DNA of 64,000 nt from positions 186,320 through 250,319 of the forward strand of contig CAWBSL010000003.1 of NCBI GenBank assembly GCA_963791435.1, read 5' to 3'. This DNA comes from Candidatus Dormiibacterota bacterium. GTDB taxonomy: Bacteria; Chloroflexota; Dormibacteria; Aeolococcales; Aeolococcaceae. Positions 117-55,502 of the stretch are shown here, piece by piece. The stretch's first letter is position 1; every line of letters starts with the position of its first letter. The notes under the pieces are model-generated. The model made no database searches, was not told where the DNA came from, and saw only the letters and a list, made by a program, of their open reading frames with translations. Position numbers and translations under genes: made by a program.

Positions 117-1188
117 TTGCCGTGTGTCCTTTGCCCGCGTCAGCGCGTGCACGGCGACGTGAGCGCGCTCACGTGCTCGCTCGGACCGGACAGCGCCGGG
201 ACCGTGCTGATGCGCGAGTTGCGCGGCGCACGCCACACAATCGACGCTGCAATCTACGAGGTGGGCCCGTCGTATCGGTGGGCGCTCGTCCGCGCGGCTG
301 AGCGCGGAGTCGCCATCCGGTTGGTGCTTGACTCGCACCGCTCCGATGGCAACGCAGCCACCGCCCGTGCGCTGATCGCCGCGGGGGGTGAGTGTCGCGT
401 CGCCGGGGTGGGCGCGGACGCGGCACACGGCAAGCTCCTCATCGTCGAACTCGACAGTGGCGGTCGGGACCGGGAACCTCATCTGGCGCGACGCGCCGCG
501 CGACCGCCACCTTCGGCTTCCTCCGCATGCGGATCTGCTTGCTGGAACACGCGAGTGGTGGGTGACGGCGAAGCGCTCGCGGCAGTTGCACCGTGTGGCA
601 GCCGAGGCATTCGGGAACCACTGGGCTGCCGCCACCATGCCGCCGGCGTCGTGGGCGAGCGATTCGCAGACGGGACCGCCCGGCGTCGGCACACCGACAA
701 CACAGGTCGGGCCCAAGGACGTTTGCATCTCGTCACGCCGGATGCGTCTCGTGATCGGTGGCGCAGCAGTGGGAGAGGTTCTCGCGACGGCTCTGTCCGG
801 TGCTCGGCGACGGATCCTGGTGACCGTCCCGTACGCGCGCCCTGCTGCCGCATCGGTGAAGACGCTCCTCGATCTCATGACCCGGGCTTCCTCGCGCGGT
901 GTGGCCTGCGGTCTGCTCCTCGGAGGACTTCCCCAACGTGGGGATGCCGAGCTGCTGGCGGCGCTGCCCTTTGCAGTCCGGCGCATGGATCCGGTGCAGT
1001 CCACCTCGGGACACGCCAAGGGCCTCGTGGCCGACGGCTCGGTCATCGTGTCCTCCGCGAACTGGAGCGACGCCGGCCTCGGGGGCAACTGGGAGGCCGC
1101 GCTGCATATCGACCACCCGGCGGCTGCCGCCTACTACGCGGCGGCGTGGCGGCGGGACTGGGAGACCGGCGTCCCGATCGAGGTTTGA
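117..1188 (+). CDS. Phospholipase D family protein with two HKD motifs; apparent frameshift at 447-452
   Basis: The first frame gives ...AAHGKLLIV. Removing one A from GAACTC gives HGKLLIVDSTVAVGTGN (HxKxxxxD) and joins ORF 388..1188, which carries HAKGLVAD..SSANWS...NWE. Start codon uncertain. Confidence 0.8.
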
Positions 1189-1217
1189 CGCTGGAAGGGC
1201 CCGGCTATTCTCTACGG

Positions 1218-4080
1218 ATGCCCGATGTCGAGCCGCCGGCGCCAGCCGGCCCTGCTCCGGCGGCTGTCGCACCTGCTTCGCTGACGCTTCCGGCGGTCCC
1301 ACTCCGCGACAACGTCGTCTTCCCCTCGCAACTGGCGCCACTCGCAGCGGGGCGGCCCCGCTCGGTGGCGGCGCTCGAGGCGGCGGTGAATGGCGACGGG
1401 CGGGTCGTACTCGCCATCCAGCGTGACGCCGAACGCGACGACGCCTCGATCGATGACGTCCACGCGATCGCCGTCATCGCCCACGTCGGTGCCTTCAGGC
1501 GGCTGCCCGGCGGCGGCGCTCACGCACTCGTCGAAGGCAAGGAGCGCGTCCGGATCGACGCTTTCGATGCCTCGGGAGATGCGTGGGTCGCCACCGTCAC
1601 ACCGATCCCCATCGACACGGTCGAAGGGACCGAGGTGGACGCGCTCTTCGGATCCGTGCGCACGCTCTTTGCCGACTACGTCAACGCAGGCGCTCAGGTG
1701 GGTGCCGACACCGCGGTCGCCATGGCACGAGCATCGCAACCGGAGCTCATTGCCGACATCGCGAGCACCTGTCCCGACTTCGGCTTCGATGACCGTGTCG
1801 CGCTCCTCCAGGAGACCGACGCGATCGCCCGCCTGCGCACGCTCATTCCACTGCTCGCCCGCGAGGTCGAGGTGGCGCAATTGCGCACCAAGATTCACGA
1901 GGACGTCCAGAAGACGATCAACAACTCGCAGCGCGAGCACATCCTGCGCGAACAGTTGCGCGCGATCCGCAAGGAGCTCACCGAGCTCGACGACGCTGGT
2001 GAGGACGACGAGGACCTCGCGGCCCGAGTCGAGAAAGCCGGCATGCCTGACAACGTCAAGCTGCGAGTCCTCAAGGAAGTTCACCGCCTCGAACAGATCC
2101 CCAGCGCTTCCCCCGAGATGGGAATGGTCCGCACCTGGGTCGACTGGCTCCTGGACCTCCCCTGGGTCGACCCCCCAGCCGAAACCCTCGACATCGAACG
2201 CGCCGCCGCCATCCTCGACGAAGACCACTACGGCCTGACGAAAGTCAAAGACCGCATTTTGGAATGGCTCGCCGTCCGAGAACGCATCCGTACCAAAGGC
2301 ATCGCCGAGGAAGCAGCCGCCGCGGAAACCGCAAAAGCCGAGGCCACTGCTGCTGTCGAGGCCGCGAGATTGGTGGGGGAGTCGGCGAACGAATCAGCAA
2401 AAGAGCCAGCAGTCTCGGGAGCCGAAATTGCGGCCGCTGAAGAAGATGCTGCCAGCGACGGCGCAGCCAACGCCGCCGCCGAAGAAGCCCCAGACTCGGC
2501 GTCTGAAGCGACCGCGGAGAGGACTCCCCAGGAGGCGGGTGGCGGAGCGGGGGGAAGCGCCGATCCCAGGCCCGGCGCCGCGCAGGACGTTCCCAGAGCG
2601 CAAGACGATGAGGAGTCAGACCGGGCCGGCGAGCGGCGAGGGGTACCCGCTCCGACAGGACCCGCCGCACTCGCGACGGCTCCAAAGCCGAGGCGCACGC
2701 TACAGACGCCGATCCTCTGCTTCGTGGGCCCCCCAGGCGTCGGCAAGACCTCACTAGGCCGCAGCATCGCCAGAGCGCTGGACCGCAAGTTCGTGCGAAT
2801 GTCCCTTGGTGGCATCCGTGACGAGGCTGAGATTCGCGGCCATCGCCGGACGTACATCGGAGCGCTCCCGGGCAGGATCATCCAGTCGATGCGCACCGCA
2901 GGGACGCGCAACGCCGTGATCATGCTCGACGAGATCGACAAGGTCGGTGCGGACTTCCGTGGCGATCCGTCCGCAGCGCTGCTCGAGGTCCTCGACCCGG
3001 AGCAGAACTGGGAATTCAGTGATCATTATCTCGAAGTCCCGTATGACCTTTCGCAGGTGCTGTTCATCACCACCGCCAACATTGCCGAGACGATCAGCCC
3101 GCCACTGCGTGACCGGATGGAGATCATCCGCATCACCGGATACACCGAGCAGGAGAAGGTACAGATCGCGGAGCGACATCTCGTACCGCGTCAGCTTGAC
3201 CAGCATTCGCTCGACGCCAATGAGCTGGAGATTCCGCGCGAAACCATCATCGCCATGCTGCATGGGTACACGCGCGAAGCCGGTGTTCGTCAGCTCGATC
3301 GCACGATTGCCGAAGTGGCTCGCAAGGTGCCGCGCAAGCTCGCCGCAGGGGTTGTGCCACCGGTTGTCATCACGCCGGCGGATCTCTCCGAGCTGCTCGG
3401 CCCGAGACGCCATGACTACGGCGAGGCGCAGGAGCAGGATGAGATCGGCGCGGTCACGGGCGTGGTGGTCAGCGAGGTGGGGGGCGACATCATCACCGTT
3501 GAAGCGCTGGCGATCGAAACCAAGCCTGACCTGGTGCTCACCGGGCAACTGGGAAGCGTGATGGAGGAGTCCGCACGCGCAGCTTTGTCATGGGCGAAGG
3601 TGCATGCCGTCGAATACGGCGCGCCGCGTGACTTCTTCGACACGCACGCGATCCACGTGCACGTCCCCGCGGGCGCAATCCCCAAGGACGGTCCATCAGC
3701 CGGCGTGACGCTCGCGACCGCGATGGTCTCGGTTGCGTCTTCGCGACGTGTGCGCAGGGATCTCGCCATGACGGGCGAGGTCACCTTGCGCGGCAAGGTG
3801 CTTCCCATCGGGGGCGTGAAGGACAAGCTGCTCGCGGCCCATCGCTCGGGGCTCAAGACGTTCATCCTCCCCGCGAAGAACGTTCGCGACCTGTACGAGG
3901 TTGACAAGGAGATTCTCGACGCCATCGAGATCGTCCCCGTCGACAATGTCAGCGAAGTGCTCGACCGGGCACTTGTCGAGTTCGGATGCACCCCGCAAAC
4001 GTGAACGCCGGGGCGCGGGCTTCGTGCTCCCGATCACCAGCGCGGACGTCATCGGTCCGATCAACGCCGAGCCCGCGTAA
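1218..4080 (+). CDS. lon: ATP-dependent Lon protease (LonA). As read it stops at 4004; the probable true stop is 4080 after correcting a 1-nt insertion at 3978-3983
   Basis: Lon N-domain (LPAVPLRDNVVFP), Walker A GPPGVGKTS, Walker B MLDEIDK, catalytic PKDGPSAG and GGVKDK. A GC3-rich tail continues in the +1 frame to TAA 4080. Confidence 0.95.
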
Positions 4081-6038: not shown

Positions 6039-6333
6039 GTGATGACCACCGACTCGCCGACCGAGAGCAAACCGAGACGGCGCTGTCCCTCCTGTGGCGG
6101 TGAGTTGCGCTTCTCGCACCGCGAGTACGCGGGCAAGGGCACGTCGGCAGCCGTGCTGCGCTGCTCGGGGTGTGGCGACGTCATTCGTGACAGCGCGCGT
6201 GAGTTCGATACAGGCGCCGCAACGCCATACCTCGAAGCGTCATCGCGATCTCGACGCAGGTCCTCCGGCGAACCCGGTGCTTGACCCGGAGCTTGCGGCG
6301 AAGCTCCTGCAAGCCGGTCGCGACTCCGGCTGA
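6039..6333 (+). CDS. Small zinc-ribbon protein; apparent frameshift at 6201-6206
   Basis: CPSC...CSGC. Removing one T in GAGTTC joins ORF 6039 to ...SIQAPQRH...NPVLDPELAAKLLQAGRDSG*. Confidence 0.6.
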
Positions 6334-10258: not shown

Positions 10259-10264
10259 GGAAAG

Positions 10265-10642
10265 TGCAAGCCGGCCGATAAGCCGGGTTCTGTCCTCACC
10301 CGCGCGGCGGACGAGGGACGGTCATCCATCTGGGACGCCGGTTACCCGGCGCCTCGAGCGGCCCACCTGAGACGCACGAAGCGAGCAACTCCTGAGCGCC
10401 GAAACGCTCGGTCTCTGTTCGGCCTTGCTCCGGGCGGGGTTTACCTGGCCGGCCGGTCACCCGGCCGCCGGTGGGCTCTTACCCCACCATTTCACCGTTG
10501 CCCCGGACGGGTCCGGGGCTGTGTCATTTCTGTGGCACTCTCCTTCGGGTCACCCCGACTGGGCGTTACCCAGCGCCCTGCTCTGCGGAGCCCGGACTTT
10601 CCTCGGACGCAAAGGCGCCCGCGACCGTCTGGCCGGCTTGCA
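10265..10642 (-). ncRNA. rnpB: RNase P RNA
   Basis: The reverse strand contains GAGGAAAGTCCGGGCTC and ACAGAACCCGGCTTA, with complementary termini (GCAAGCCGGCC...GGCCGGCTTGC). Confidence 0.97.
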
Positions 10643-10704
10643 TGTCGAGTCTATCCTCTGTGGCTCCCCGCCAACGACATCACCTCCGGGAGAACACCGG
10701 CACC

Positions 10705-13233: not shown

Positions 13234-13724
13234 GTGCCCAACTTGCGTTTCGCACATCGAGTTCGACCGCGGGTCGACCCCGACGGCAGCCGGCGTCGAC
13301 GACGTTCCCTTCGAACCGCTCGTGCGACGGCTGCGCATCCGCCGCGGCGGACCACGGACGCCGCTGCCGTTGCTGCCGGTGATCGCGGTCGCCGCCGGCA
13401 TCGGCATCGCGTACGTCAACCAGACGGCGCACGTCACCACCGCCACGTATCAGGCGACGCGCCTCGAGTTCGCGTCAGCAGCAGCTCGTCGCCGAGAACC
13501 TGCAGCTCGGCGCCGAGCTCTCCCGCCTCGAATCGTCGGAACGGATCATCTACGCGGCGCAGAGCATGGGCATGCGCCCGGCCGCAAAGTGGTCCTGGGT
13601 CGCCGCTGCTCCCCACAACGTCATCGCGTCGCCGCCGGAGCAGCTGACCGCGAATGACACCGGCACCGCCCTGCAGCAGCTCGTCGGGGCGCTCGACGGC
13701 GCCTTCGGTGGCGCCGGTCGATGA
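13234..13724 (+). CDS. ftsL: FtsL-like cell division protein; two apparent frameshifts (13259-13264, 13466-13471)
   Basis: Lies between rsmH and ftsI. The corrected frame gives a basic N-terminus, one TM segment (LLPVIAVAAGIGIAYV) and a coiled coil LESRQQQLVAENLQLGAELSRLESSERIIYAAQSMGM. Confidence 0.75.
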
Positions 13725-36981: not shown

Positions 36982-36999
36982 CCTCCTAGGGATCAGCAC

Positions 37000-37540: not shown

Positions 37541-37544
37541 CGTC

Positions 37545-38243: not shown

Positions 38244-38292
38244 GGCGCCCCTGCAGTTCGGCTGCGAACGATCTGCCGGTATCCTTGAGGTG

Positions 38293-42601: not shown

Positions 42602-43186
42602 CCCCGAACGGACGGCTCATCGTGCTGACCGGGCCGAGCGGCGTCGGCAAGGACACGGTGCTGCGTGAGCTGTTCGAGCTCGATCCGAGTTCTCGTGTAC
42701 TGCATCTCGTACACAACGCGCCCGCCCCGTCCTGGCGAGACGAACGGCGTGTCGTATTTCTTCGTGGACGAGGCGACCTTCCGCGCGATGATCGATGGCG
42801 ACGAGTTCTTCGAGTGGTCGACCGTCTATGGCGAGCTCAAGGGGCGGACGTTCGAGACGGTGAACAAGGCCATCGCGTCCGGGCGTGACACCGTGATCAA
42901 GATCGATGTCCAGGGCGCGGACAAGGTTCGAGCGCGGATCGGCGACAGGGGGATCTATATCTATCTCCTGCCGCCGAGCATGGAAGCACTCGAGCAGCGC
43001 TTGATCGAACGTGCCACGGAAGACCCGGCGAGCCTCCAGGCGCGCCAGGAGCTCGCGGTTGCGGAGCTCGCGCTCAAGGACACGTACGATCATCAGGTGG
43101 TGAACGACGACGCGAGGCGAGCCGCGCAGGAGATCGAGGCCATCATCCAGCGAGCGCGGTCTGAGAACGGCGGGGGTGAGGCATGA
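42598..43186 (+). CDS. gmk: Guanylate kinase; apparent frameshift at 42687-42692
   Basis: GPSGVGKDT, then (corrected) ISYTTRPPRPGE, IDVQG, LPPS, VVND. Confidence 0.93.
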
Positions 43187-44404
43187 GCCTCGAGCTCGAG
43201 GGCCATCGCGTTCTAGTCGGCATCGGCGGCAGCGTGGCCGCATACAAGGCGTGCGAGGTCGTGACCGATCTCCGTCGTGAGGGCGTGGAGGTGAAAGTCG
43301 CCATGACCGAGGCCGCAACCCGTTTCGTCACGCCGACGCTGCTCCGCGCACTGAGCGGCCACCGGGTCGCATCGAGCATTTGGGATGACGACCCCGAGGT
43401 GGGACACGGGATGAGCCACCTCGATCTCGCCTCGTGGTGCGAGGTGCAGGTCGTCGTCGCGGCGTCGGCCGACCTCATCGCGCGTCTCGCGCTCGGACTT
43501 GCCGGCGATCCGGTCACGGCCACCGCGCTCGCATGCCGGGCGCCGCTCCTGGTGGCGCCCGCGATGGAGTCGGCGATGTGGGAGCACCCGGCAACCCAGG
43601 GCCACGTGGCGACGCTCACTGCGCGCGGCGGCCGGATCATCGGCCCGGTGTACGGCAGGCTCGCGAGCGGGCACGAGAGTGCGGGCAGGATGGCCGAGCC
43701 GGATGTGATCGTCTCGGCGGTGAGGGAGATCCTTGTCGCCGGGGGCTGACCCGTCTCTCACCGGTCTGCGTTTTGTCGTCACCGCCGGGGGAACTCGCGA
43801 ACCGATCGATCCGGTGCGCTACATCGGCAATCGGTCAAGCGGCAAGATGGGCAATGAGCTGGCCGCGGCGGCAATCCGTCAGGGTGCCGAGGTCACGCTG
43901 GTGACCGCCGGCGTCCTGCCGCCGGCACAGCCAGGCTTGACAGTGCGCGTTGTCGCGACCGCTGACGAGATGTATGCGGCAGTGCGAAGCACGCTCGCGG
44001 GAGCGCGCGTCCTCATCATGGCGGCCGCAGTCGCCGACTGGCATCCGAGTCAGGCAGCTGCGCACAAGCTCAAGAAAGGTGCCTCCACGCTCACGCTCGT
44101 TCTGGTCCCGACCGTCGATATCCTCAGCTCCCTGCGCGATGACGAGATCGCGGCCGGCGTCTTCAAGGTTGGATTCGCGGCGGAGACCGACAACGTGATC
44201 GACAACGCGCGGGCGAAGCTCGACGCCAAGCATCTCGACCTCGTGATCGCAAACGACGTGTCTCGCGAAGATATCGGTATGGGGGCGGATCACAATGAGG
44301 TGACGGTGATCGGTCGCAACGGGCTGCAGCAGCACATACCGCGTGCCCCGAAGTCCGTCGTCGCCGACGCGATTGTGCGAATCATCGCGCGCAGCCTGCG
44401 ATGA
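43183..44404 (+). CDS. coaBC: Bifunctional CoaBC; split at the G-run 43741-43745, probably a 1-nt insertion
   Basis: CoaC: GSVAAYK, APAM, GRMAEP. CoaB: TAGGTREPIDPVRYIGNRSSGKMG, AAVAD, GFAAET. Removing one G fuses the two frames. Confidence 0.9.
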
Positions 44405-46392
44405 CCTTCGCGTCCGTCGTCCCCGAGACTCGCTCGCAGCTCCCGCGCGACGCCTACACGTACTCGATTCCCGACGACCTCGCTGAGCTGGTGCTTCCGG
44501 GGGTTCGGGTCGAGATCCCCTTCGGCAAGCGATCGATCCTCGGATACGTTGTCGAGCGCACGGAGGAGTCGGAATTCGCGGAGGTTCGCGCGATCGACGG
44601 TGTCATCGACGAGCCCCGGCTCATCCTCGACCACCATATCGCCCTCGCGCGACAGATCGCGGATCGGTACTGCGCACCGCTCGGTGAGGTCCTTCGCGCC
44701 ATGCTGCCCAAAGGCGTTCGCAACCGCCCCACGCGCCGCGCCGGTCCGCGCTCGATGTCACGCGCCGTGGCGGAGGCCGGCGGCCTCGGTCCACCCGAAC
44801 CCCCGCCCGTCCTCAACGACGCGCAGCGTGTGGCGGTGGCGCCGCTGCTCGAGGCGATCGCCGCGCGCACACACCGGCGCATCCTGCTCCACGGCGTTAC
44901 CGGGAGCGGCAAGACCGAGGTGTATCTCGCGGGGATCGACGCCGCTCTGGCGAAAGGACGCGGAGCGATCGTGCTGGTGCCCGAGATTGCGTTGACACCA
45001 CAGATGATTCGCCGCTTTACGGTGCGCTTTCCGGGCAAGATCGCCGTGGTCCACTCGGCGCTCACCGACGCAGAGCGCGCGGCCGAATGGCGGCGCATTC
45101 GCAGCGGCGAGCACAGCGTGGTCATCGGCTCGCGCAGCGCTGTCTTCGCACCGGTGGCCGACCTCGGGATCGTCGTGGTCGACGAGGAGGATGCCCCGGC
45201 GTACAAGCAGGACCGTGTCCCGCGATATCACGCAGTCGACGTCGCCTTGATGCTCGGCGCGCTGTGCGACGCGCCGGTCGTGATGGGCAGCGCGACGCCG
45301 CGTGTCGAGAGCTTCTTTCGCGCGCACACCGGTGAACTCGAGCTCGCGACACTGCCGGAGCGGGTCAGCGGCCGTCCACTGCCGCCGATCGAAGTTGTCG
45401 ACCTTCGTGACGAGCTGCAGGCCGGCAACACCAACGCGTTGTCGCTGACGCTCGATCGCGCGCTGCAGGAATGTCATGCAGACGGCGGTCAGTCGATCCT
45501 GTTCCTCAATCGTCGCGGCACGTCAACGGTGGTCTTGTGCCGGACGTGCGGCGAAGCGCTCACCTGCACCAACTGCAGCGTGTCGCTGGTGCACCATGTG
45601 GATCGCTCGAGCTGCGACTGCCATTACTGCGGACTCTCCATCCCGCTCCCGAGTGCATGCCCGTCATGCGGCTCTCGCACGATTCGCGCCCTCGGTATGG
45701 GCACCGAGCGGCTCGAACGCGAGGTGCGTGAGCGGTTCCCGGCGTTGCGACTCATCCGTATGGATCGCGACACCACGCGTTCGCGCGACGCGTACTTCGA
45801 CATCTACGACAAGTTCCGTCGCCACGAGGCGGACTGTCTCATCGGGACGCAGATGGTCGCCAAGGGATGGGATCTTGGCAACGTCCGTCTGGTCGGCATC
45901 GTCAACGCGGACACCTCGCTGCACTTCCCCGACTATCGCAGCGGGGAACTCACGTTCTCGCTGCTCACCCAGGTGGCGGGACGCGCGGGACGCGGCGACG
46001 AACCGGCGCGCGTGGTGCTCCAGACATACAGCCCGGGCCACTACGCGGTCCGCCACGCCACCACGCATGACTACCTGGGTTTCGCGCGCGACGAGATCCG
46101 TGTGCGCAAGGCCTTGCGATTCCCGCCCTACGCGCGTCTGTGCGTCTGCACGTTTGTGCACAAGGAAGATCACGAAGCCGAGATCGAGGTGCGCCGGGAG
46201 GCTCAGCGACTGTCTGGTACACTCGGAATTGACGCCGGGCTCGATGTCCTCGGTCCGACGCCGGCCTTCCTCCACCGGCTCCGCGGCGAATACCGCTGGC
46301 AATTCACGGTGCGAGGCAACGACATCGAGAGGGCATTCCCTCACCTTCCCAAAGCCCGGGGTTGGAGCATCGACGTCGACCCCGGGGCGTGA
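44401..46392 (+). CDS. priA: Primosomal protein N'
   Basis: GVTGSGKTEVY, VPEIALT, DEED, LNRRG, four CxxC pairs, GTQMVAKG, QVAGRAGR. Confidence 0.96.
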   Translation: MTFASVVPETRSQLPRDAYTYSIPDDLAELVLPGVRVEIPFGKRSILGYVVERTEESEFAEVRAIDGVIDEPRLILDHHIALARQIADRYCAPLGEVLRAMLPKGVRNRPTRRAGPRSMSRAVAEAGGLGPPEPPPVLNDAQRVAVAPLLEAIAARTHRRILLHGVTGSGKTEVYLAGIDAALAKGRGAIVLVPEIALTPQMIRRFTVRFPGKIAVVHSALTDAERAAEWRRIRSGEHSVVIGSRSAVFAPVADLGIVVVDEEDAPAYKQDRVPRYHAVDVALMLGALCDAPVVMGSATPRVESFFRAHTGELELATLPERVSGRPLPPIEVVDLRDELQAGNTNALSLTLDRALQECHADGGQSILFLNRRGTSTVVLCRTCGEALTCTNCSVSLVHHVDRSSCDCHYCGLSIPLPSACPSCGSRTIRALGMGTERLEREVRERFPALRLIRMDRDTTRSRDAYFDIYDKFRRHEADCLIGTQMVAKGWDLGNVRLVGIVNADTSLHFPDYRSGELTFSLLTQVAGRAGRGDEPARVVLQTYSPGHYAVRHATTHDYLGFARDEIRVRKALRFPPYARLCVCTFVHKEDHEAEIEVRREAQRLSGTLGIDAGLDVLGPTPAFLHRLRGEYRWQFTVRGNDIERAFPHLPKARGWSIDVDPGA

Positions 46393-46406
46393 ACGGAGAC
46401 AACAGC

Positions 46407-46916
46407 GTGGCAGTCCTTCCCATCGTTCTGGTCTCGGACCACAACGACGTGCTCACCACCAAGGCGATCCGCGTGCCGCGGGTTGATGATGAGATACGCC
46501 GTCTGATGGACGACATGGTCGAGACCATGTTCGACGCCAACGGCGTCGGCCTCGCCGCACCCCAGGTCGGCGTGTCGCTGCGCGTCATCGTGCTTCGCGT
46601 CGACAACCAGATCTACCAGCTCGCCAACCCCGAGATGGTGCGCACCGACGGCGACCAGACCGGATACGAGGGATGCCTGTCGGTCCCCGGGTGGGTCGGC
46701 GAGGTGACCAGGCGGCAACGCGTTGTCGCCAAAGGGCTGAACCGTCACGGCAAGGAGGTCCGCGTCAAAGGTGACGGCCTGCTCGCCCGCGCGGTGCAGC
46801 ACGAGCTCGACCACCTGGACGGCATCCTCTTCACGAGCAGGGTGAATGAGGGAACTCTTCGCGAGGTCGAACCTGCAGAGGAGGCTGAGGAGCCCGGCGT
46901 CGTCAGCGCCGTGTGA
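46407..46916 (+). CDS. def: Peptide deformylase
   Basis: GVGLAAPQVG, EGCLS, QHELDHLDG. Confidence 0.97.
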   Translation: MAVLPIVLVSDHNDVLTTKAIRVPRVDDEIRRLMDDMVETMFDANGVGLAAPQVGVSLRVIVLRVDNQIYQLANPEMVRTDGDQTGYEGCLSVPGWVGEVTRRQRVVAKGLNRHGKEVRVKGDGLLARAVQHELDHLDGILFTSRVNEGTLREVEPAEEAEEPGVVSAV

Positions 46917-47833
46917 GGCTCGTCTTCTGTGGCACCGCGGCATTCGCGGTGCCGTCGCTCCGGGCATGCGCCAGGAACCACGAGGTGCTGGCGGTGGTCA
47001 CCCGGGCGGATCGACTGGGGAATAGAGGGAAGCCGGCGCCGCGCCCCGTCGCCGAGGCGGCTCGTGAGCTCCGACTTCCGGTGCTGATGCCCGCGAAGAT
47101 CGGGGCCCCCGAAGTGGTCCGGGGCCTTGTCGACCTCATCCCGGATTGCGTGGTCGTCGCCGCGTACGGCCAGATCCTCCCGATCTCACTGCTCGATCCC
47201 CTGCCCTTCGGAGCCGTCAACGTCCATGCGTCCCTGCTGCCCCGCTGGCGAGGGGCGTCGCCGATCGCCCACGCGATCCTGGCCGGCGACGCCGAGACGG
47301 GCGTTTCCATCATGCGAATGGAGGCCGGGCTCGACACCGGGCCTGTGTACGCGATGGCGCGCATTCCCATCGAGGACGACGCGACCACGCCGGCGCTCAC
47401 CGCCGCGCTGGCCGATCTCGGGGCATCGGAGCTCGTTGCGGTGTTGAGCGCGCTCGAGCACGGTTCAGCTGAGGCGACGCCGCAACCCAAGGAGGGGGTG
47501 ACCGTCGCCCCGCGCCTGACCCGTGAGGACGGGAGAGTTGCGTGGGCGACACGGAGTGCGGTCGATGTTGACCGTATGGTTCGTGCGCTCCAGCCGTGGC
47601 CGGGCGTCGTGGCGCCGATCGATGGCGTCGACGTTCAGATCCAGTCCGGCGCGGCGGTGAGCATTGATGCCGGAGCTGTGCCTGGCAGCGTGGCGCGCCA
47701 TGAGGGCGAATCGGTGGTCATCGCCACTCTCGACGGTGGATACCGGGTCGACCTGATCACGCCTCCGGGAAAGCGAGTCATGACACCGGCGGCGTGGCTG
47801 AGGGGCCGTCGTTCGGGCGAGGCAGGCGGCTGA
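46913..47833 (+). CDS. fmt: Methionyl-tRNA formyltransferase
   Basis: FCGT, AAYGQIL, NVHASLLPRWRGASPI, LDTGP. Confidence 0.96.
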   Translation: MRLVFCGTAAFAVPSLRACARNHEVLAVVTRADRLGNRGKPAPRPVAEAARELRLPVLMPAKIGAPEVVRGLVDLIPDCVVVAAYGQILPISLLDPLPFGAVNVHASLLPRWRGASPIAHAILAGDAETGVSIMRMEAGLDTGPVYAMARIPIEDDATTPALTAALADLGASELVAVLSALEHGSAEATPQPKEGVTVAPRLTREDGRVAWATRSAVDVDRMVRALQPWPGVVAPIDGVDVQIQSGAAVSIDAGAVPGSVARHEGESVVIATLDGGYRVDLITPPGKRVMTPAAWLRGRRSGEAGG

Positions 47834-48297
47834 TGCCGACGACGCGCAAACCGGGCGACAACCTCCTGGCGCACAACCGCCGCGCCCGCTACGAATACAG
47901 CATCGTCGAGTCGCTAGAGGCCGGTATCGAGCTCACGGGCACCGAGGTGAAGTCACTGCGAACCGGCCGGATCCAGCTGCGCGACGGCTACGTGCGGGTC
48001 GAGAACGGCCAGGCGTGGCTGATGCAGGTGAATATCGCCTCGTATCAGCACGGCAACCGCAACAACCCGGAACCTGAGCGCCGCCGGCGCCTGCTCCTGC
48101 ATAAGCGCGAGATCGAGTACCTGGACGGGCGCGTGCGGACGCAGGGGCTGACGATCATCCCCCTGAGGCTGTACCTGGTTCGCAACCGGGTCAAGGTGGA
48201 GATCGGCCTCGCCCGCGGCAAGAAGCTGTGGGACAAGCGTCAGGACGTGGCGAAGCGCGACGCCGAACGTGATATGGAGCGCGCGATCAAGAACTGA
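47833..48297 (+). CDS. smpB: SsrA-binding protein
   Basis: NRRARYEY, EAGIELTGTEVKSLR, LLLHKREI, GKKLWDKR. Confidence 0.97.
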   Translation: MPTTRKPGDNLLAHNRRARYEYSIVESLEAGIELTGTEVKSLRTGRIQLRDGYVRVENGQAWLMQVNIASYQHGNRNNPEPERRRRLLLHKREIEYLDGRVRTQGLTIIPLRLYLVRNRVKVEIGLARGKKLWDKRQDVAKRDAERDMERAIKN

Positions 48298-48407
48298 CGT
48301 GCACGGCGAGCCGTGGAGATTCCGGATTCGACGCGGGTCGGTCTGCGGCGAGCCAATGAGCGCGGAGCTCCGCCAATGAGGGCGAAGTCCCGAGCTGGCT
48401 CCGGACC

Positions 48408-49631
48408 TCAGCCCGCTGCGGCGTGGAACTCGGCTCCGGGCGGCAGGGCCTGAGAGGCCGCGCTCGGGCGGTTGGCCTTGATATCCGGGACCACCTGCGC
48501 GGCGAGCCCGTCGATGCGCTGGCGCAGCTCGCGAAGCCCGGTTCCCTTGGTCGCGCTGACGGCCAGCGCCGAGACCCCGGCGACGTCGCCGAGGCGGAGG
48601 CGAGCGGAGCGGACTTCGGATGCGGTCAGGCGGTCGACCTTGGAGAGCGCGAGGATCATCGGCTGGTCGCAGTCCATCGACCGCAGCGTGTCGAGGACGG
48701 TGATGAGCTGTTGCTCCGCGTCGGGGTGCGATGCATCGACTACGAGGCAGAGCATGTGAGCCTGGCGCACCTCCTCGAGGGTGGCGGCGAATGCCTCGAC
48801 GAGCTCGGTCGGCAGCTTCTGGATGAAACCGACCGTATCGGTGAGGATGACGAGCTTGCCGGAGGGCAGCTCGAGGCGGCGCGAGGTGGGGTCGAGCGTC
48901 GCGAAGAGCAGGTCGTCGGCGAGGACGGTGCTGTGCGTCAGGACGTTGAGCAGGGTCGACTTGCCGGCGTTCGTGTATCCGACGAGGGCGCAGGAGGCGA
49001 GTGGGACGTTGGTCCGGGCGGTTCTCCGTGTACGGCGCTGCCGTTCGATCACCACCAGGCGCTCGCGAAGGCGCTTCAGCTGCTGGCGGATGAGGCGCCG
49101 GTCCACCTCGATCTGCTTCTCTCCAGGACCGCCGCGGAGCCCGACACCACCGCGCTGGCGCTCGAGGTGGGACCAGCCACCCGCGAGACGCGGCAGGAGA
49201 TGCTCCAGCTGCGCCATCTCGACCTGCACCCGCCCCTCGGCGGTGATGGCCCGGCGGGCGAAGATGGCGAGGATCACCTCCGTGCGATCGAGGACGGGGA
49301 CGCCCCATTCCTCCTGGAGATTGCGCTGCTGGCGCGGGGTGAGCTGGTCGTTGCAGAGCACCGCAGGCATCTCCAGCTCGGCGAGGTGGGACGCGAACGC
49401 GGCCACGACGCCCGAGCGGAAGAACGTGGCCGGATGCGGCTCGCGCAAAGAGATCAGGCTCCGCTCGAGCACCTCGGTGCCGAGCGTCCGGGCCAGTTCC
49501 TCGAGCTCGTCGAGCTCGATGTCGCGCTGCTCGCGCTCGTCGCGTCGGGCGACGGTGCCGATGACGATGACCCGCTTCAGTTTTGTGCCGACCGCAGGGT
49601 CAGCTCCAGACGGCGCGTCGAAATGGGGCAA
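48408..49631 (-). CDS. hflX: GTPase HflX
   Basis: ELEELA, QVEMAQL, RGGPGEKQIEVDRR, GYTNAGKSTL, FATLDPT, DTVGFI; start uncertain. Confidence 0.95.
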   Translation of the reverse strand: MPHFDAPSGADPAVGTKLKRVIVIGTVARRDEREQRDIELDELEELARTLGTEVLERSLISLREPHPATFFRSGVVAAFASHLAELEMPAVLCNDQLTPRQQRNLQEEWGVPVLDRTEVILAIFARRAITAEGRVQVEMAQLEHLLPRLAGGWSHLERQRGGVGLRGGPGEKQIEVDRRLIRQQLKRLRERLVVIERQRRTRRTARTNVPLASCALVGYTNAGKSTLLNVLTHSTVLADDLLFATLDPTSRRLELPSGKLVILTDTVGFIQKLPTELVEAFAATLEEVRQAHMLCLVVDASHPDAEQQLITVLDTLRSMDCDQPMILALSKVDRLTASEVRSARLRLGDVAGVSALAVSATKGTGLRELRQRIDGLAAQVVPDIKANRPSAASQALPPGAEFHAAAG

Positions 49632-49707
49632 CTAGCGCGTCACCGATCCGGCCGGAACCTGGAGCATGCGATCAGCCTACCAACGGCGCCCGCCGTCTGC
49701 TCAATGG

Positions 49708-50952
49708 TCAGGTCGCCGCACGCTCAACCGGTATGGCGGCGGTGGCCGGGATCTTCAGCTGGAGGACGGCGCTCCCAGCGACGGTGAGCCCGGCCGCGCA
49801 CAGCACGGCGAACGTGGTCGACACCCCGAGCGCGGGGCCCGCGAGGGCGGAGCCGATGGGGACACCCGAGAAGTTCAATGCCATCGACACGGCGAAGGCG
49901 CGCCCGAACCATGCCCGTGAGGTGCGACGCTGACGCAGCGAGAAGGCGGGCACGCTCGACGCGGCATCCGCGCCACCGGCGATCGCGATGCCCACGGCGA
50001 TCAGCGCCAGCGAAGGCACGAGCAACACCAGGATCGAGAGACCCATCACGGCACCGAGCAGCGCCATCGCCTCGCGCTCGTGTCCCTCCGTCCGAAGGCG
50101 GCCCGTGATGAGTGCCGCGGGCACTCCGGCTGCGCCGGCGAGGGCCAGGATGGCGCCGACGACGGCGGCATTGCCGTGCAGGTGGAAGACCACGACCGGG
50201 AGGGCGACGATCATGATCCCCCAGCCCACATTGAGCGTCGAGAACCCGACCGCGATCCACCGCAACGTGCGATTGCTGACGACGTAGCAGAGGCCGCGCC
50301 AGGCTTCGTAAAAGATGTGGGAGGACATCCCACCGGCGTGTGCAGGCTCGGCGACTCCCTGGAGCGCGACGGCGCCGGCGACAAATCCGATCGCCGCTCC
50401 CGCGAGGGCGGCTTCGCTGCCGACCAACGCGATGAGCGCGCCGGCGAGCCCAGGGCCGGCGATGCTCGACACGCCGTACAGGACGCTGTCCGCAGCGTTG
50501 CCGCGATCCCACAGATCGCGGGGGAGGATGAGCGGAAACATCGAGCGCGCCCCGGCGATGCTGAGCGTGCTCGTCAGTGAGCCGCCCACCAGCAGCGCGT
50601 AGAGACCCCAGATGGGCAGGTGGTTGGTCAACGACAACGAGACGATCGCAGTGCAGCACACTGCTGCGACCGTGAAGTCGAGCGTCATGAGGCGCTTGCG
50701 TCCGTGGCGGTCGAGGAGTGCGCCGGCGATCGGGCTCATGAGCAGACCGGGAAAGATGAGGAGGAACAAGCTGACTCCCGCGATGCTCGGCGAGTGGTAG
50801 CGCTGCAGCGCGAAGAGGACGAGGCCGACCGTCCACATCTGCGCGGCGGTTCTGGTGAGCAGCGAACTGATCAGCAGTTGCCGGAACCCCGGGACGCGCA
50901 GCATCCGCGCGTAGGTCACCGGAGGTGTGACAACGCCTTGCCCCGTGGTCAT
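49708..50952 (-). CDS. MFS transporter
   Basis: About 12 hydrophobic segments; motif A GALLDRHGRKR. Confidence 0.9.
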   Translation of the reverse strand: MTTGQGVVTPPVTYARMLRVPGFRQLLISSLLTRTAAQMWTVGLVLFALQRYHSPSIAGVSLFLLIFPGLLMSPIAGALLDRHGRKRLMTLDFTVAAVCCTAIVSLSLTNHLPIWGLYALLVGGSLTSTLSIAGARSMFPLILPRDLWDRGNAADSVLYGVSSIAGPGLAGALIALVGSEAALAGAAIGFVAGAVALQGVAEPAHAGGMSSHIFYEAWRGLCYVVSNRTLRWIAVGFSTLNVGWGIMIVALPVVVFHLHGNAAVVGAILALAGAAGVPAALITGRLRTEGHEREAMALLGAVMGLSILVLLVPSLALIAVGIAIAGGADAASSVPAFSLRQRRTSRAWFGRAFAVSMALNFSGVPIGSALAGPALGVSTTFAVLCAAGLTVAGSAVLQLKIPATAAIPVERAAT

Positions 50953-51247
50953 CTCGACCTCGGCGAACACGCGATGCTCGGGCATCCGGGGGCGCGCGGA
51001 GACGCCACGACAGTCGACATGCTGCAAGGGTAGCAACGCTCGCCATTTACGAGGATGACGGGGTGCGGTGGTCGTTTCACACGGCCGCACCAGGCTCTTG
51101 TCGCGGGGTGCGTCGCGTTCTGGCGGACCCTGCACCGCGGTTGAGCGCCGGGCAACAGGTGTCGCAGCGCCACCGACCCTGAATATGGAGACGGGCGACG
51201 CGCTATGATCATCCGTGCACGCTGATCTCGGACAGCTGCGTTCCCAT

Positions 51248-51623
51248 GGGGGCGTACTGGTTTCGACGGGGTCGTGGGTCGTGCGAATGCGAGTTCGAGC
51301 CCCGGGCTCGTAAAACCGGGAAAAATATACGTGCGAATAACGCACCCCTCGCTCTCGCTGCGTAAGTAGCAAAAGCGAAAAAAGCTCAGGCTTCGGCCTG
51401 ACGTCGACCGGCTCCTCGGCTGTGGGGGTCGGACCCGACGTTAATGCAAGCAGTCTCGCCGCCCGGTGGCGCCTCGGCGCCGGGCGGGACATTCACCGAG
51501 GCTGGCCGCAGCCGAGCCTGGTCCCAGGGCGCGATTGAGGTGAGATAAAAACCGGGACTACACTCGTAGATGTCGCATGGAACGCGGCTTCGGACCCGGG
51601 TTCGATCCCCGGCGCCTCCACCA
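51248..51623 (+). ncRNA. ssrA: tmRNA; tag peptide ANNAPLALAA (51333-51365)
   Basis: 5' GGGGGCGTACTGGTTTCGAC; 3' GACCCGGGTTCGATCCCCGGCGCCTCCACCA; tag ORF ends LAA*. Confidence 0.97.
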
Positions 51624-51643
51624 CGGTTGTTGCAGAGAGAGCT

Positions 51644-52895
51644 TTACGCGAGCGCTCCCTCGTAGATCCACTGCGTATTGACCGGACAGATTTGGCTCAC
51701 TGGCTTGCCCTGCAGCGTGTAGGTCCACCAACTTCCGCTCTCGTACCCATTGGTTCCAGGGGGCGGGGGCGTGTTGTCGGGCGGGGATGCGACGAATTCG
51801 TCATTGCCCCACCAACCGTAGATTTGCAGGTTGGCAATATCGATGTGACTGCGATTGGCCAGGGTCACCATTTCAAGTGAGGTGGTGGGGATGGCGCCGC
51901 CCCCGCAAGGGTTGAAACTTTCGCGACCGACGGCGACGTGGGCGCCGTCCGGACTGATCGAAGCTCCGTAGACGATGGACTTACTCTCGGAGTAGGTCAC
52001 CCCGTTGATTAAGACGGAGTGCGGAGCATTTGCAGGGCTGGCGGCGATGACGCGGCTGCGGGCATCCAGCATCTGCTCGGTGGAAGGGACCAGTTGGCGC
52101 AGTTGGCCGGTGCTGGGGTTGATGACGAACCACGCATCCCCACCGCCGCTCCCGCAGGGCCCGTCCTGCACCCGCTGCATGATGATCCCGGTGTCGGTCC
52201 AGGCCGCCACCTGTTCCCCATACCCGACCGGTGCCACCCAGCGGTAGAGGATTCGATTGGATTGCCCAAGACCACCCAGTTCGATAACCCCGTCATGTTT
52301 GCCGGTGGCATTTGGGGTCTCATCGACGCTCCAAGCCCACTCGGTCCCGGTGGGGGAGACTTGAAAGCTGTCCAAGGAGTAGCTGAGGTCACCGGGACTG
52401 GCCAGAGCCGGAGCAGTCCCCTTGCCGATCAACATGCCAGTCCGAGAGAGGACGACGACTTGGTTGGGAGTGGTTGGTGAGGCTTGATAGAAGAAGAACA
52501 CATCGGAATCTCCAGCCTGGGGTCCGAGGTTGTAGCTACTGGCCTGCTTGGCCGTCAGTCCGAAAAGCTGCCCCTCCTGGGCATTGGTCAGAACTCCACT
52601 GCTCCACTCCCTGGCCGTTGAATACCGCCATCGCTCCTTCGTCGCTGTAAAAGAGAGCCAAAGGAGGCTCGGGAGCTGACATGGGAACCGCAGTCGGGCT
52701 CGGGGTTGGGACTGCGGTTGGGGTCGCGGTGGCGCTGGCGGTCGGCGTTGGGGTGGTGGTTGGGCCGGCAGCGGCACAGGAGGCCACGAGGAGGGCTACG
52801 GGCAAGGTGGCAATCAACCGGTGGCGGTTGTTCCGGGTTCTGGGCTGCAACTCACTCGCGTCAACCCCATCCTTGGTCGTCGGGGTCGTCACCAC
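51644..52895 (-). CDS. Hypothetical lipoprotein, possibly beta-propeller; apparent frameshift at 52591-52596
   Basis: Lipobox-like LVASC and PT linker; removing one base gives VEQWSLTNAQ; SPTG/SPDG repeats; visibly lower GC than the core genes. Confidence 0.7.
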
Positions 52896-53194
52896 AGATA
52901 CCTCCTGATCGCAGTCTGCGCCTCGCCATTGATTACGAAACAGGGCCAGAGGCCATCGCTTTTGGCGTCAAAGGTCCCGCGATCCGCTAAGGGAACAGCT
53001 GCGAGGCCAACGGCGGCGATTGCCGTGCTCATGATGGTTGTGAGTTTCATGTCTGTCTCATCCCATTGAACGGGAACCCTCGCCGACGGTTACATCTGTG
53101 CAAATGCGTCGAACGCGCCGCCGTGCCCAACGTCTTTTAGCAACTCCCAAAGAACCGCTTGCAGGTTGCTGCGCGGTCTGCGATACTCCCAAAC

Positions 53195-53728
53195 ATGTCT
53201 TTGGAGGTAACGCAGCGGCAGCAGTTACGAGCGCTGTCCCATCCGCTCAGGGTGCGCATCCTTTCGCTCCTGACCGGGAGGGCGATGTCGAGCGCCGAAC
53301 TGGCCCGCGAACTCGGCATGCGCCACGCGGCTGTGAGCTTTCACGTCCGTCAACTCGTGGCCGCCGGGTATCTCGAGCTCGTTGAGACGCGGTCAGTGCG
53401 GGGCGGCCAGGAGCGCTGCTATCGCTCGCGCCCGGCGGGACACGCGGAGTGGTCGAAGGAGGATCCCCGGCTGGTCGTTCGCGCGGTGGCGGAGGAGGTC
53501 ACGCGACGCGCTGCGGATTCGCCGCCGCAGGCGTGGCGCCTCTTCGGTGACGCCGAGCTCTGGGTCGACCAGGCGATCTGGGACGACATCGTCAAACGGA
53601 TGGTTGCAGCGATGAACGACCTGCACACCGCCGCGCAGACGCCGCGCACGGCCGGGTCCAAACACGTCAGCGCGACCGCGATGCTCTTCGCGATCGACTC
53701 CGGCGGGTCGGAAGAGCAACAGCATTGA
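53195..53728 (+). CDS. ArsR-like winged-HTH regulator
   Basis: ALSHPLRVRILSLL, AELARELG, SFHVRQL..AGYL, RGGQERCY. Confidence 0.9.
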   Translation: MSLEVTQRQQLRALSHPLRVRILSLLTGRAMSSAELARELGMRHAAVSFHVRQLVAAGYLELVETRSVRGGQERCYRSRPAGHAEWSKEDPRLVVRAVAEEVTRRAADSPPQAWRLFGDAELWVDQAIWDDIVKRMVAAMNDLHTAAQTPRTAGSKHVSATAMLFAIDSGGSEEQQH

Positions 53729-54969
53729 TGCGGCGGTTCGGGCGGCTGCGAGGGCCGCTCGCACATCGCAATTTTCAGCTGCTCGTCGGCTGCGACGTCA
53801 CCTCGATGATCGGCTCGGCGATGGCGCTGGTCGCAGTGCCTTTTGCGGTTCTGAAAAGCGGCGGCACTGTCAGCGACGTCGGTTTTGTCGCCGCCGCCGG
53901 GCTGTTGCCCACCGTCGTGTTTCTGCTCTTCGGTGGCGTGCTCGCAGACCGGCTACCGCGTCAGCACGTGATGGTCGCGGCCAACATCGGACAGGGACTT
54001 GCCCAGGCCGGGTTCGCCGTGCTCGTGCTCACCGGCCACGCGCAGGTCTGGGAGATGATGCTGCTGACCGCAGCTCGCGGCTCCGCATTCGGGCTGTACA
54101 TGCCCGCCGCGCAAGGGCTTCTTCCGCAGACGGTGGACGCCGACCAGCTCGCCTCTGCAAATGCTGTGCGGCGCCTCGGCCTCAACAGCGCCCAGATCGG
54201 CGGCGCCGCGCTTGGCGGGCTCGTCATCGCTGCAGTCGGTCCGGGCTGGGAACTCGTCGCCGACGCGAGCAGCTATTTCGTCGCCGGTGTGTTTCGCGCG
54301 GGGATGCGCTTCACCAACCTTCCGCCGATCGTTCGCTCCGGCGTCATCAACGAGCTGCGCGACGGGTGGCGCGCTTTCACCTCACGACGCTGGCTCTGGA
54401 TCATCGTCGTCCAGTTCGGGCTCGTCAACGCGATCTACGTCGGAGCGATCAGCGTGCTCGGTCCGGCCATCGCCGAAGAGCACCTCGGCGGCGCATCCAG
54501 TTGGGGGCTCATCGTCGCCGCGCAGTCTGCGGGAGCCGTCATCGGCGCCGCGCTCATGCTCCGCTACCGACCGGCAAAACTCCTGCACGCCGCCAGCATC
54601 GCCGTGCCGCTCATGGCGCTTCCCCTGTTCGCGCTCGCGGCGCCACTCGCCGTTCCGCTCGTCGCTCTCGCCGCACTCCTCGCCGGGATCGGGATGGAAG
54701 TCTTCGAGGTCAACTGGAGCACCGCGATCCAGGAACAGATTCCGCCAAACCTGCTGTCACGCGTCGCCGCATACGACGCGCTCGGGTCGTACGCGCTGAG
54801 CCCGATCGGCACCACGATCGCCGGGCCGCTCGCTGTGCTCATTGGTACGGCCACGGCGCTGACCGGCGGTGGCCTCGCAATCGTGGCGTCGGCAGTCATC
54901 GTCCTTGCGGCGGCGGATGTCCGGAACCTCACTCGCTCTCCCAGTCGCGCCCGCACGTCGAATACCTGA
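53728..54969 (+). CDS. MFS transporter (macrolide/DHA3-like)
   Basis: GGVLADRLPR, about 12 TMs, QEQIPPNLLSRV. Confidence 0.9.
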   Translation: MRRFGRLRGPLAHRNFQLLVGCDVTSMIGSAMALVAVPFAVLKSGGTVSDVGFVAAAGLLPTVVFLLFGGVLADRLPRQHVMVAANIGQGLAQAGFAVLVLTGHAQVWEMMLLTAARGSAFGLYMPAAQGLLPQTVDADQLASANAVRRLGLNSAQIGGAALGGLVIAAVGPGWELVADASSYFVAGVFRAGMRFTNLPPIVRSGVINELRDGWRAFTSRRWLWIIVVQFGLVNAIYVGAISVLGPAIAEEHLGGASSWGLIVAAQSAGAVIGAALMLRYRPAKLLHAASIAVPLMALPLFALAAPLAVPLVALAALLAGIGMEVFEVNWSTAIQEQIPPNLLSRVAAYDALGSYALSPIGTTIAGPLAVLIGTATALTGGGLAIVASAVIVLAAADVRNLTRSPSRARTSNT

Positions 54970-55065
54970 GCGGCCACATCGAGTGAAGCTCGACCCAAGC
55001 GATCGAGTGGCTCTCGTTGACAGGCGTGCGGCAACGCTGAACTGCGTTCGCACGACAATGAGCGG

Positions 55066-55502
55066 GTGCCGAAACGCGCAATAACCCCCGGTGAACATAT
55101 CCATGCCGAGTGCCGCCGGCGCGGGACTCTCGAGGTGGTCGCTCACTGCATCGACCTGCTCGAGGGACGCGACGTGGATGACGCACTCCTGCACGTGCTG
55201 GGAGGTCTCCCTGCGACAAGTGTGGTCATTGGCTACAACGGCGGGAAGCAGGGATACTGGCCTCGCGTCTGGGCGATGCGAGGTCTGCTCTACGCCTGGG
55301 ACGAATCAGCGACGAGTGCAGTGATCGCCGGGACGAGGGACACTGCGTGGCGAGTTCCGGGAGATGGCTGCGAAGGTGATCGCTCGCCACTGCCTTGGTG
55401 ATGCGCTGGAGTTCAGCCGCGGCGCTCCACGGTGATCCTGTCGAGCGCGTGCGGGACGCGGCCGAACGTGCTGTTCGGATTCTCGTCGCAGCTCGCGCCT
55501 GA
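55066..55502 (+). CDS. HEAT-repeat protein; two apparent frameshifts (55352-55357, 55409-55414)
   Basis: YWPRVWAMRGLLYAW; corrected DTAWRVREMAAKV...DPVERVRDAAERAV. Confidence 0.72.

Follow-up and report, generated by a model that had tools for sequence, protein, structure and literature searches.

Why should ten breaks of reading frame within one stretch of DNA all fall on the same six bases? The question is raised by a 64,000-nucleotide stretch (the window) of a Candidatus Dormibacterota metagenome-assembled genome (MAG; G000), which comprises 3.1 Mb in 3 contigs. The original prediction placed ten breaks on GAGTTC or its complement GAACTC, and at each of these coordinates GAGTTC is indeed present, on either the plus or the minus strand. 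An eleventh break site, absent from that list, was found at 51291-51296, within the tmRNA gene. The window holds 50 GAGTTC sites, whereas dinucleotide shuffles give 30.9 ± 5.0, and 50 was reached in 0/100 shuffles. At the other 39 sites no consistent gap was seen, two of them (33617 and 34110) lying outside the cover of relatives and reads. Our results indicate that the eleven extra bases are, with near certainty, an artefact that is not in the DNA of the organism.

Independent sequence of the same population provides the most direct evidence. Contigs almost identical to the window, from four public runs of soil metagenomes in two studies (X1-X4), which we take to be short-read assemblies from their contig style and from an adapter-like loose end in X4, were aligned to positions 36500-56400 of the window (19.9 kb). 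Exactly one base is missing from these contigs at each of the six break sites in this interval, at 37043, 51294, 52592, 55355 and 55412 in all four runs, and at 42690 in the three runs that cover it. Beyond these, just three indels occur (51534, 51538 and 51634), all of them confined to X4; the interval's remaining 14 GAGTTC sites show none. The original prediction had held that the genes are intact, and that accurate reads carrying the extra base would make the indels real; the opposite outcome was found, with the base missing from public contigs at every site checked. The genes concerned can be regarded as intact in the cell.

Each of these six sites reads as GAGTTC with one spurious base. 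The site in nrdR (37042-37047; minus strand, GAACTC on the plus strand) splits the NrdR zinc-ribbon profile exactly at the break into matches to positions 2-15 and 16-42, and 7/9 relatives have GACTC there. The Guanylate_kin profile is split in the same way in gmk (42687-42692, plus strand), with matches to positions 2-26 and 32-181, and four of five relatives are one base shorter. The tmRNA gene (ssrA) occupies 51248-51623 on the plus strand (Rfam RF00023, 170.3 bits; ARAGORN concurs) and encodes the tag peptide ANNAPLALAA; its break, also on the plus strand, corresponds to positions 44-49 of the gene, where 4/4 relatives have GAGTC. The remaining sites lie in a Pro/Thr-rich putative lipoprotein gene (52591-52596, motif and coding sequence on the minus strand), for which an orthologous alignment was found in none of five relatives, and in a HEAT-repeat-like gene (55352-55357 and 55409-55414, both on the plus strand). 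Deletion of the duplicated base was seen to rejoin the frames in the lipoprotein gene and at both HEAT-repeat-like sites, as had been predicted.

At the five remaining sites (447, 3978, 6201, 13259 and 13466), which again read GAGTTC with one spurious base, genomes of the same genus have one base fewer. In the plus-strand gene of the PLD family, the break at 447-452 (GAACTC on the plus strand, motif on the minus strand) lies outside the cover of the public contigs and is judged from relatives, 5/5 of which are one base shorter, and from the PLDc_2 profile, whose match to positions 1-88 ends at the break; the HxKxxxxD..GxGN motif can be read across it. The Lon_C profile (2-204 of 205) likewise ends at the break in the C-terminal tail of lon (3978-3983, plus strand), where 5/5 relatives have one base fewer and where, of the 44 named loci whose alignment spans the break, L098 alone also has GAGTTC. 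The small zinc-ribbon gene (6201-6206, plus strand) is one base longer than in 5/5 relatives within 15 nt, with the gap placed 9-15 nt downstream; in a MAFFT alignment the relatives have a single ORF, reading RDSARES(V)QAPQRH, and the window needs one base less directly after GAG. In the upstream part of the ftsL region (13259-13264, plus strand), four of five relatives were scored as one base shorter at the site itself, while 5/5 have a gap within 13257-13263, with GTGTC or GCGTC at this place; whether the DNA directly upstream is coding is in doubt, the codon scores there being low. The second ftsL site (13466-13471, plus strand), where 5/5 relatives have one base fewer, is also flagged by the codon-frame test, with a score of 37.7. 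Over the two stretches that were compared, the window shows extra non-triplet bases relative to at least three relatives in 23 places, 8 of them at or adjoining GAGTTC.

The signature is not confined to the window. When frameshift contexts were counted genome-wide, as had been suggested, GAGTTC and its flanks came out on top among all 4096 6-mers at insertion-like frame changes, the first five being AGTTCG, GAGTTC, CGAGTT, TCGAAC and GAACTC. GAGTTC itself was hit at 19/2118 sites (13-fold, p = 2e-15), while ATGA/GTGA gene overlaps surfaced instead in the deletion-like control scan. A motif-centred test flagged 41/2118 GAGTTC sites, compared with 0 to 0.82% for 27 other tested 6-mers. The original prediction had noted no equivalent errors at GAATC/GATTC, and the counts for the GAWTC-derived duplicates GAATTC (2/782), GAAATC (2/896) and GATTTC (2/896), which show no excess, agree. 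It had further been proposed that the duplicated base is the A of the GACTC strand: the position holds, the fourth base of GAGTC being opposite the second of GACTC, but a double-stranded consensus does not allow the strand to be assigned.

Statistics of k-mers alone, considered as a detector, leave the effect invisible, with Markov observed/expected ratios genome-wide of 0.98 for GAGTTC and 0.84 for GAGTC. The window contains 100 GAGTC words against 216 in dinucleotide shuffles, a halving that is mostly due to rare AGT/ACT codons. A candidate second error class, GAGTC to GAAGTC, appeared raised (15/1837 and 14/1837 flagged). It was left unconfirmed, given that 5/15 lay within 100 nt of GAGTTC, four formed two neighbouring pairs and several contained TGA/GTGA overlap words; no indel of this type was found in the window against public contigs or relatives.

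What, then, produces the extra base? We consider it probable that it is a long-read consensus error at GAGTC, most likely from Nanopore sequencing, and that adenine methylation in GAGTC/GACTC is its cause. The platform is deduced from the 3 contigs for 3.1 Mb and from the type of error. Under this scheme, a long-read-only assembly would retain consensus errors at a fraction of the true GAGTC sites; a methylated adenine within GAGTC/GACTC would distort the pore signal, and the basecaller or polisher would count one base twice, turning GAGTC into GAGTTC. Protein genes would thereby acquire spurious frameshifts, and the tmRNA gene a spurious inserted base.

The original prediction had expected the modifying enzyme to be encoded elsewhere, and two conserved orphan genes for beta-class N6/N4 methyltransferases (PF01555) are indeed present outside the window. 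One encodes 254 aa (contig C1, 1132010-1132774) and its neighbour 297 aa (C1, 1134008-1134898). Profile searches of the genome with PF02086, PF02384, PF07669 and PF00145 gave no match. Both PF01555 genes occur in 12/12 genomes of the same genus with 79-92% identity, and the 254-aa enzyme in 104/117 genomes of the family. They flank an acyl-CoA dehydrogenase gene on the opposite strand; no restriction enzyme gene was recognised beside them, the neighbours, by sequence, being the acyl-CoA dehydrogenase and peroxiredoxin-like and MaoC-like proteins. In both enzymes motif IV precedes motif I, and motif IV reads DPPF in one and DPAY, a departure from the usual DPPY/F, in the other. Searches of PDB, NCBIfam and PADLOC place the two among type II beta-class methyltransferases, with matches that do not specify the recognised word, and both fall far short of the CcrM equivalog cut-off (NF050803; 79.8 and 79.0 bits versus 830). 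The 254-aa enzyme is the best candidate and might be responsible for the modification, an attribution we put forward tentatively, and the 297-aa enzyme is the second candidate.

The distribution of the signature among relatives bears both on this assignment and on the most serious rival, namely a generic basecaller or polisher error in (c)GAGTC(g) that is independent of modification and would arise in any organism sequenced alike. Only 11/111 true GAGTC sites of the window carry the duplicated base, the remaining ~90% being called correctly, and such a low share, like the dependence on flanking bases, fits a generic error. C precedes 35/41 flagged sites and G follows 32/41, as opposed to 46-56% and 44-48% overall, and within the window cGAGTCg is miscalled at 6/26 sites against 5/85 with other flanks. 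Five related genomes were compared for flagged GAGTTC sites by the codon-frame test at a threshold of 15. With the 254-aa enzyme, 15/270 sites were flagged in G000, 6/244 in G116 and 4/209 in G083, the last being marginal (p = 0.08 at threshold 15, 0.009 at threshold 20); association controls ranged over 0.3-0.85%. In the two genomes that have no 254-aa enzyme, both of few contigs, the counts were 0/233 (G071) and 0/164 (G042), despite 594 and 529 intact GAGTC in the sampled DNA, although both have a higher GC (0.71) and their sequencing may differ from that of G000. The error signature is lineage-specific. Published motif errors, as far as the available parts of those reports go, are also tied to methylation and vary between strains and species. 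We therefore regard a generic error as rather unlikely, while leaving it an appreciable share of the probability, and modification as the probable cause.

That the assembly carries the extra bases could instead mean that they exist in the DNA, as frameshift mutations or as polymorphisms between strains, and that the genes are pseudogenes in the assembled strain; in favour of this reading, the nrdR error is common to two other species-level assemblies (G009 and G011, each of ~20 contigs). Nevertheless, 29 other genomes of the genus have the correct form, and the error is seen in few-contig assemblies only, with 0/4 among the many-contig genomes compared at this site. Further few-contig assemblies within the genus show errors of this type at orthologous positions. 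G007 has GAGTTC at the position matching the GAGTC at 36664 of the window, and the methyltransferase gene is in two pieces in G005, G007, G117 and G118; nrdR sequence patterns searched across genera matched inside the genus only. Real mutations are, moreover, difficult to reconcile with the six population sites that have no extra base, with the identity of the affected genes, which include nrdR, gmk, ftsL, lon and tmRNA, and with the fact that every event is the same duplication in one 5-mer, so that this reading is very improbable. If GAGTTC were a site of programmed recoding, through transcriptional slippage or a +1 shift of the ribosome, the common sequence at every break would be explained, but this reading is even less credible and is refuted by orientation (25 flagged sites sense and 16 of 41 antisense to the gene, in differing codon phases) and by the base missing in public contigs, one site moreover lying in the non-coding tmRNA gene.

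The duplicated base in GAGTC, which we attribute with some confidence to methylation, has consequences mainly for annotation. By a rough estimate the 3.1-Mb genome would contain ~100-300 such false frameshifts, which would make intact MAG genes such as nrdR, gmk, ftsL, lon and tmRNA look like pseudogenes or split ORFs, and other assemblies of the genus with few contigs are damaged likewise. Completeness is only 61-79% in several of its genomes that consist of one to nine contigs, possibly a consequence of false frameshifts. In such MAGs, GAGTTC should be masked or corrected before pseudogenes, recoding or gene loss are counted. The finding is of practical value and does not point to a new cellular process. 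As a by-product, the footprint points to a presumably methylated word and a candidate enzyme; if this is true, the word can be read free of charge from the errors of Nanopore-only MAGs in an uncultured soil phylum, the Dormibacterota being a group in which we know of no cultured member.

Long-read artefacts of this kind are already known. Several studies indicate, in the portions available, that Nanopore assembly errors cluster at methylated motifs, GANTC included, and are reduced by methylation-aware models (PMC12710330; Lohde et al. 2024, PMC11610573; Liu et al. 2024, PMC11610603). The motifs concerned include GANTC and those of restriction-modification systems in agrobacteria (PMC12710330), and GANTC in Brucella (PMC12392509), again according to the accessible text. 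One large project, from what could be seen of its report, assembled its soil MAGs with Flye and a single Medaka round, using no reads other than Nanopore (PMC12313526). The errors described here resemble the published ones, as presented in those parts, in being systematic, bound to a short motif, recurrent between assemblies, missing in short-read data and persistent through long-read polishing. They differ in kind, the published errors being mainly substitutions (A/G, C/T) in the same excerpts, whereas here a one-base insertion breaks frames; in addition, the motif is GAGTC, the phylum is uncultured and we infer the methylation. Nothing on GAGTC errors with nanopore and methylation was found in the literature titles and abstracts listed.

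Type IIS systems that recognise GAGTC, an asymmetric 5-bp word, are represented by MlyI, PleI and N.BstNBI. The word is the same as that found here, and a pair of methyltransferase genes would fit a scheme in which each strand has its own enzyme. Unlike a type IIS system, however, the present genes are split by the acyl-CoA dehydrogenase gene, no nuclease was recognised among the neighbouring ORFs as read by their sequence, and their conservation across genus and family is like that of housekeeping genes.

The second comparison is with the beta-class N6-adenine methyltransferases of the CcrM/M.HinfI type, which act on GANTC and of which GAWTC and GADTC variants are reported in marine MAGs, in the part of the source available (PMC8919816). 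The two candidates share with them the PF01555 beta-class architecture, in which a D-type motif IV (DPPF, DPAY) precedes motif I; as in the case of CcrM they are orphans, with no nuclease seen adjoining, they are vertically conserved, and GAGTC/GACTC is a subset of GANTC. They differ from CcrM in length, the CcrM model having 350 positions and the candidates 254 and 297 aa, and in score, with ~79-80 bits against the cut-off of 830; in contrast to CcrM-type GANTC, GAWTC has no error signature here, a comparison that measures errors and is compatible with methylation of GAWTC, and the host belongs to the Dormibacterota, not to the Alphaproteobacteria. It is conceivable, if somewhat short of likely, that a family-wide, vertically inherited orphan beta-class adenine methyltransferase of the Dormibacterota methylates GASTC as a CcrM-like, chromosome-wide epigenetic mark. 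Within GANTC, GASTC is the complement of the GAWTC sub-specificity of marine bacteria.

The window holds 50 copies of GAGTTC on its two strands, against 30.9 ± 5.0 in dinucleotide shuffles, and none of 100 shuffles reached 50. The original prediction had placed ten frame breaks on GAGTC or GACTC sites that carry one extra base (GAGTTC or GAACTC); all ten coordinates fall among these 50 sites, and three-frame translations show a frame change at each. In nrdR the break follows ...KCPFCGETDIKVV and leads to 27 residues in the next frame, in gmk ...LTGPSGVGKDTVLRELFELDP is continued by LVYCISYTTRPPRPGE, and in the PLD gene AHGKLLIV is continued by STVAVGTGN. Pfam profiles end or split exactly where the breaks fall: the NrdR zinc ribbon is matched at profile positions 2-15 and then 16-42, guanylate kinase at 2-26 and then 32-181, and PLDc_2 (positions 1-88) and Lon_C (2-204 of 205) stop there. 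An eleventh site, absent from the original list, lies at 51291-51296, corresponding to positions 44-49 of a tmRNA gene (Rfam RF00023, 170 bits; ARAGORN concurs, with the tag ANNAPLALAA). Given 11 miscalled and 100 intact GAGTC sites in the window, the error share is 9.9%; miscalls affect 6 of 26 sites with cGAGTCg flanks vs 5 of 85 with other flanks (Fisher p = 0.02).

Two studies contributed five soil-metagenome runs, all of 2024, in which 77-88% of the words sampled from window 46500-56400 are present. For four runs (X1-X4) the contigs were compared with the window over 36500-56400 (19,901 bases), and most were at least 99% alike. Exactly one base is missing at 37043 (nrdR), 51294 (tmRNA), 52592 (lipoprotein gene), and 55355 and 55412 (HEAT gene) in all four runs, and at 42690 (gmk) in all three runs with cover. 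The only other indels, at 51534, 51538 and 51634, are confined to X4, and the other 14 of the 20 GAGTTC sites in this stretch show no indel in the run contigs. A loose end in X4 resembles what we take to be a transposase adapter, suggesting short reads; whichever platform produced the runs, they are independent data from the same population without the extra base.

Sites outside 36500-56400 were checked against same-genus genomes of 80-90% identity. One base fewer was found in five of five relatives at 447 (PLD), 3978 (lon tail) and 13466 (ftsL), and in four of five at 13259 (ftsL). At 6201 (zinc ribbon) the aligner set the gap 9-15 nt downstream in all five; in a MAFFT alignment the relatives have a single ORF (...VIRDSARESVQAPQRHTSKRH...) and the window shifts frame directly after GAG. 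Across two stretches compared, the window has extra non-triplet bases relative to at least three relatives in 23 places, eight of them at or adjoining GAGTTC and most others intergenic or in compensating pairs. Elsewhere in the window, 18 more GAGTTC sites gave no consistent gap (two of them, 33617 and 34110, had no alignment).

The window has other features of note. All five relatives are one base shorter than the window at 34456 (context actcCGgag, not a GAGTC site); the extra base could be a different type of consensus error, or a real indel close to where a gene starts, at about 34326. Small indels at 10612-10615 and 10693-10704, at the class A bacterial RNase P RNA gene (10263-10640, minus strand; Rfam RF00010, 285 bits), look like real variation between species. 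A segment of about 150 nt (2521-2677), in which ARAGORN finds no tRNA, looks like a small dispersed repeat, its ends (2531-2562 and 2629-2671) matching many places in the relatives' genomes at 88-97% identity. Segments 27394-28963 and 31118-31295, located where the window's GC is lower (0.63 in 28001-32000), match several unlinked contigs per relative at 68-82% identity, suggesting a multi-copy gene or mobile element and a short repeat.

Taken together, these results bear out the original observation and add to it: the affected genes are whole, and the extra bases are artefacts, missing from the run contigs at all six of the affected sites in the stretch compared. Translational recoding is excluded, since the motif is often antisense, its codon phase varies, an RNA gene is also affected and the population DNA lacks the base. 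The independent contigs without the base rule out real pseudogenisation, and eleven identical duplications in one 5-mer across nrdR, gmk, ftsL, lon and tmRNA would be implausible.

The signature extends through the genome (3,114,875 bases, three contigs, 66.5% G+C). A codon-usage score trained on 243 long ORFs marked where the best frame changes as after a one-base insertion. Of all 6-mers, those showing the strongest enrichment at these changes were AGTTCG (19/1927), GAGTTC (19/2118, 13-fold, p = 2e-15), CGAGTT, TCGAAC and GAACTC, the motif and its flanks heading the genome-wide count of frameshift contexts; a deletion-like control scan returned just ATGA/GTGA-type gene overlaps. In a motif-centred test GAGTTC was flagged at 41 of 2118 sites (1.94%), against 0 to 0.82% for 27 other 6-mers. 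The absence of equivalent errors at GAWTC also held, GAATTC (2/782), GAAATC (2/896) and GATTTC (2/896) being at background. The 41 flagged sites comprise 25 sense and 16 antisense, with a preceding C in 35 and a following G in 32. At looser thresholds the detectable excess was 11 to 71 sites which, with sensitivity calibrated on 11 known sites, gives estimates of 107 to 296, or roughly 100-300 such errors in the genome. GAAGTC (15/1837), considered as a second error class, failed on inspection.

Related assemblies carry the same signature. At the nrdR site GAACTC also occurs in two relatives of about 20 contigs each (G009 and G011), and GACTC in seven others; a survey of 161 genomes from the order found the erroneous form in 3 and the correct one in 29, all inside the genus. 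At 36664 the five-contig G007 has GAGTTC and the window an intact GAGTC. The Lon protein brought up named relatives that are soil and peat MAGs of Candidatus Dormibacterota (Dormibacteraeota). Of 69 named loci, 44 could be aligned over the lon-tail motif, and GAGTTC is shared by L098 alone, a record with long-read-style contig names. No such insertion appears in the 43-47 kb aligned from each of three many-contig genomes (G001, G006, G008); a fourth (G012) has one, where conservation is poor. G005 (two contigs) has 26 single-base insertions against the window in 47 kb aligned, one of them at GAACTC, vs 7 in G001 at similar identity, and its assembly seems to have further error types too. Five same-genus genomes (G004, G005, G007, G117, G118) have 2-20 contigs yet a marker-based completeness of 61-79%, against 87-92% in many-contig relatives, which would fit marker genes broken by frameshifts.

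The modifying enzyme had been predicted to lie outside the window. In the genome, which is 91% complete, only PF01555 of five DNA-methyltransferase Pfam families matches, twice, on contig C1: a 254-aa protein (1132010-1132774, minus strand, motif IV DPAY) and a 297-aa protein (1134008-1134898, minus strand, motif IV DPPF), with a plus-strand acyl-CoA dehydrogenase gene between them. Both candidates lie outside the window, and no nuclease was recognised among their neighbours. PADLOC assigns both to type II beta-class. Each is present in all of 12 same-genus genomes (79-92% identity), and the 254-aa enzyme in 104 of 117 family genomes and 16 of 22 genera, a tally including four unpublished genomes. 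In four relatives with few contigs (G005:C1:105977-106724, G007:C1:969756-970521, G117:C5:209956-210724, G118:C4:179378-180146) its ortholog is split into two pieces that overlap or adjoin, probably through frameshift errors of the same sort.

The codon-frame test (threshold 15, 400-510 kb per genome) was applied to genomes with and without this enzyme. With it, GAGTTC was flagged at 15/270 sites in the genome under study, 6/244 in G116 (one contig, same genus; p = 7e-4 vs controls) and 4/209 in G083 (two contigs, other genus; p = 0.08, or 0.009 at threshold 20). Without its ortholog, the counts were 0/233 in G071 and 0/164 in G042, both of which have a PF01555 match that scores within the range of the 297-aa enzyme. 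Controls stayed at 0.3-0.85% throughout. The association, covering five related genomes whose sequencing technology is unverified, argues against a generic context error independent of modification and favours the 254-aa enzyme as a candidate. Putative modification of GAGTC/GACTC is the best explanation of the errors.

Artefacts of this kind are already known; what this case offers is corrected annotation, together with a lead that can be tested, pointing to a conserved methyltransferase of an uncultured phylum and to its motif. Extracts of published work tie systematic Nanopore errors, mostly A/G and C/T substitutions, to methylated motifs (PMC11610573, PMC11610603), among them GANTC in agrobacteria and Brucella, with fewer errors under methylation-aware models (PMC12710330, PMC12392509); insertions are not described as methylated-motif errors in the extracts of these four papers. 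According to an extract, one large project built its Nanopore-only soil MAGs with Flye and gave them a single round of Medaka 1.8.0 polishing (PMC12313526). As for the enzymes, both score far below the CcrM equivalog cut-off, their likeness to RsrI and CcrM being a distant one.
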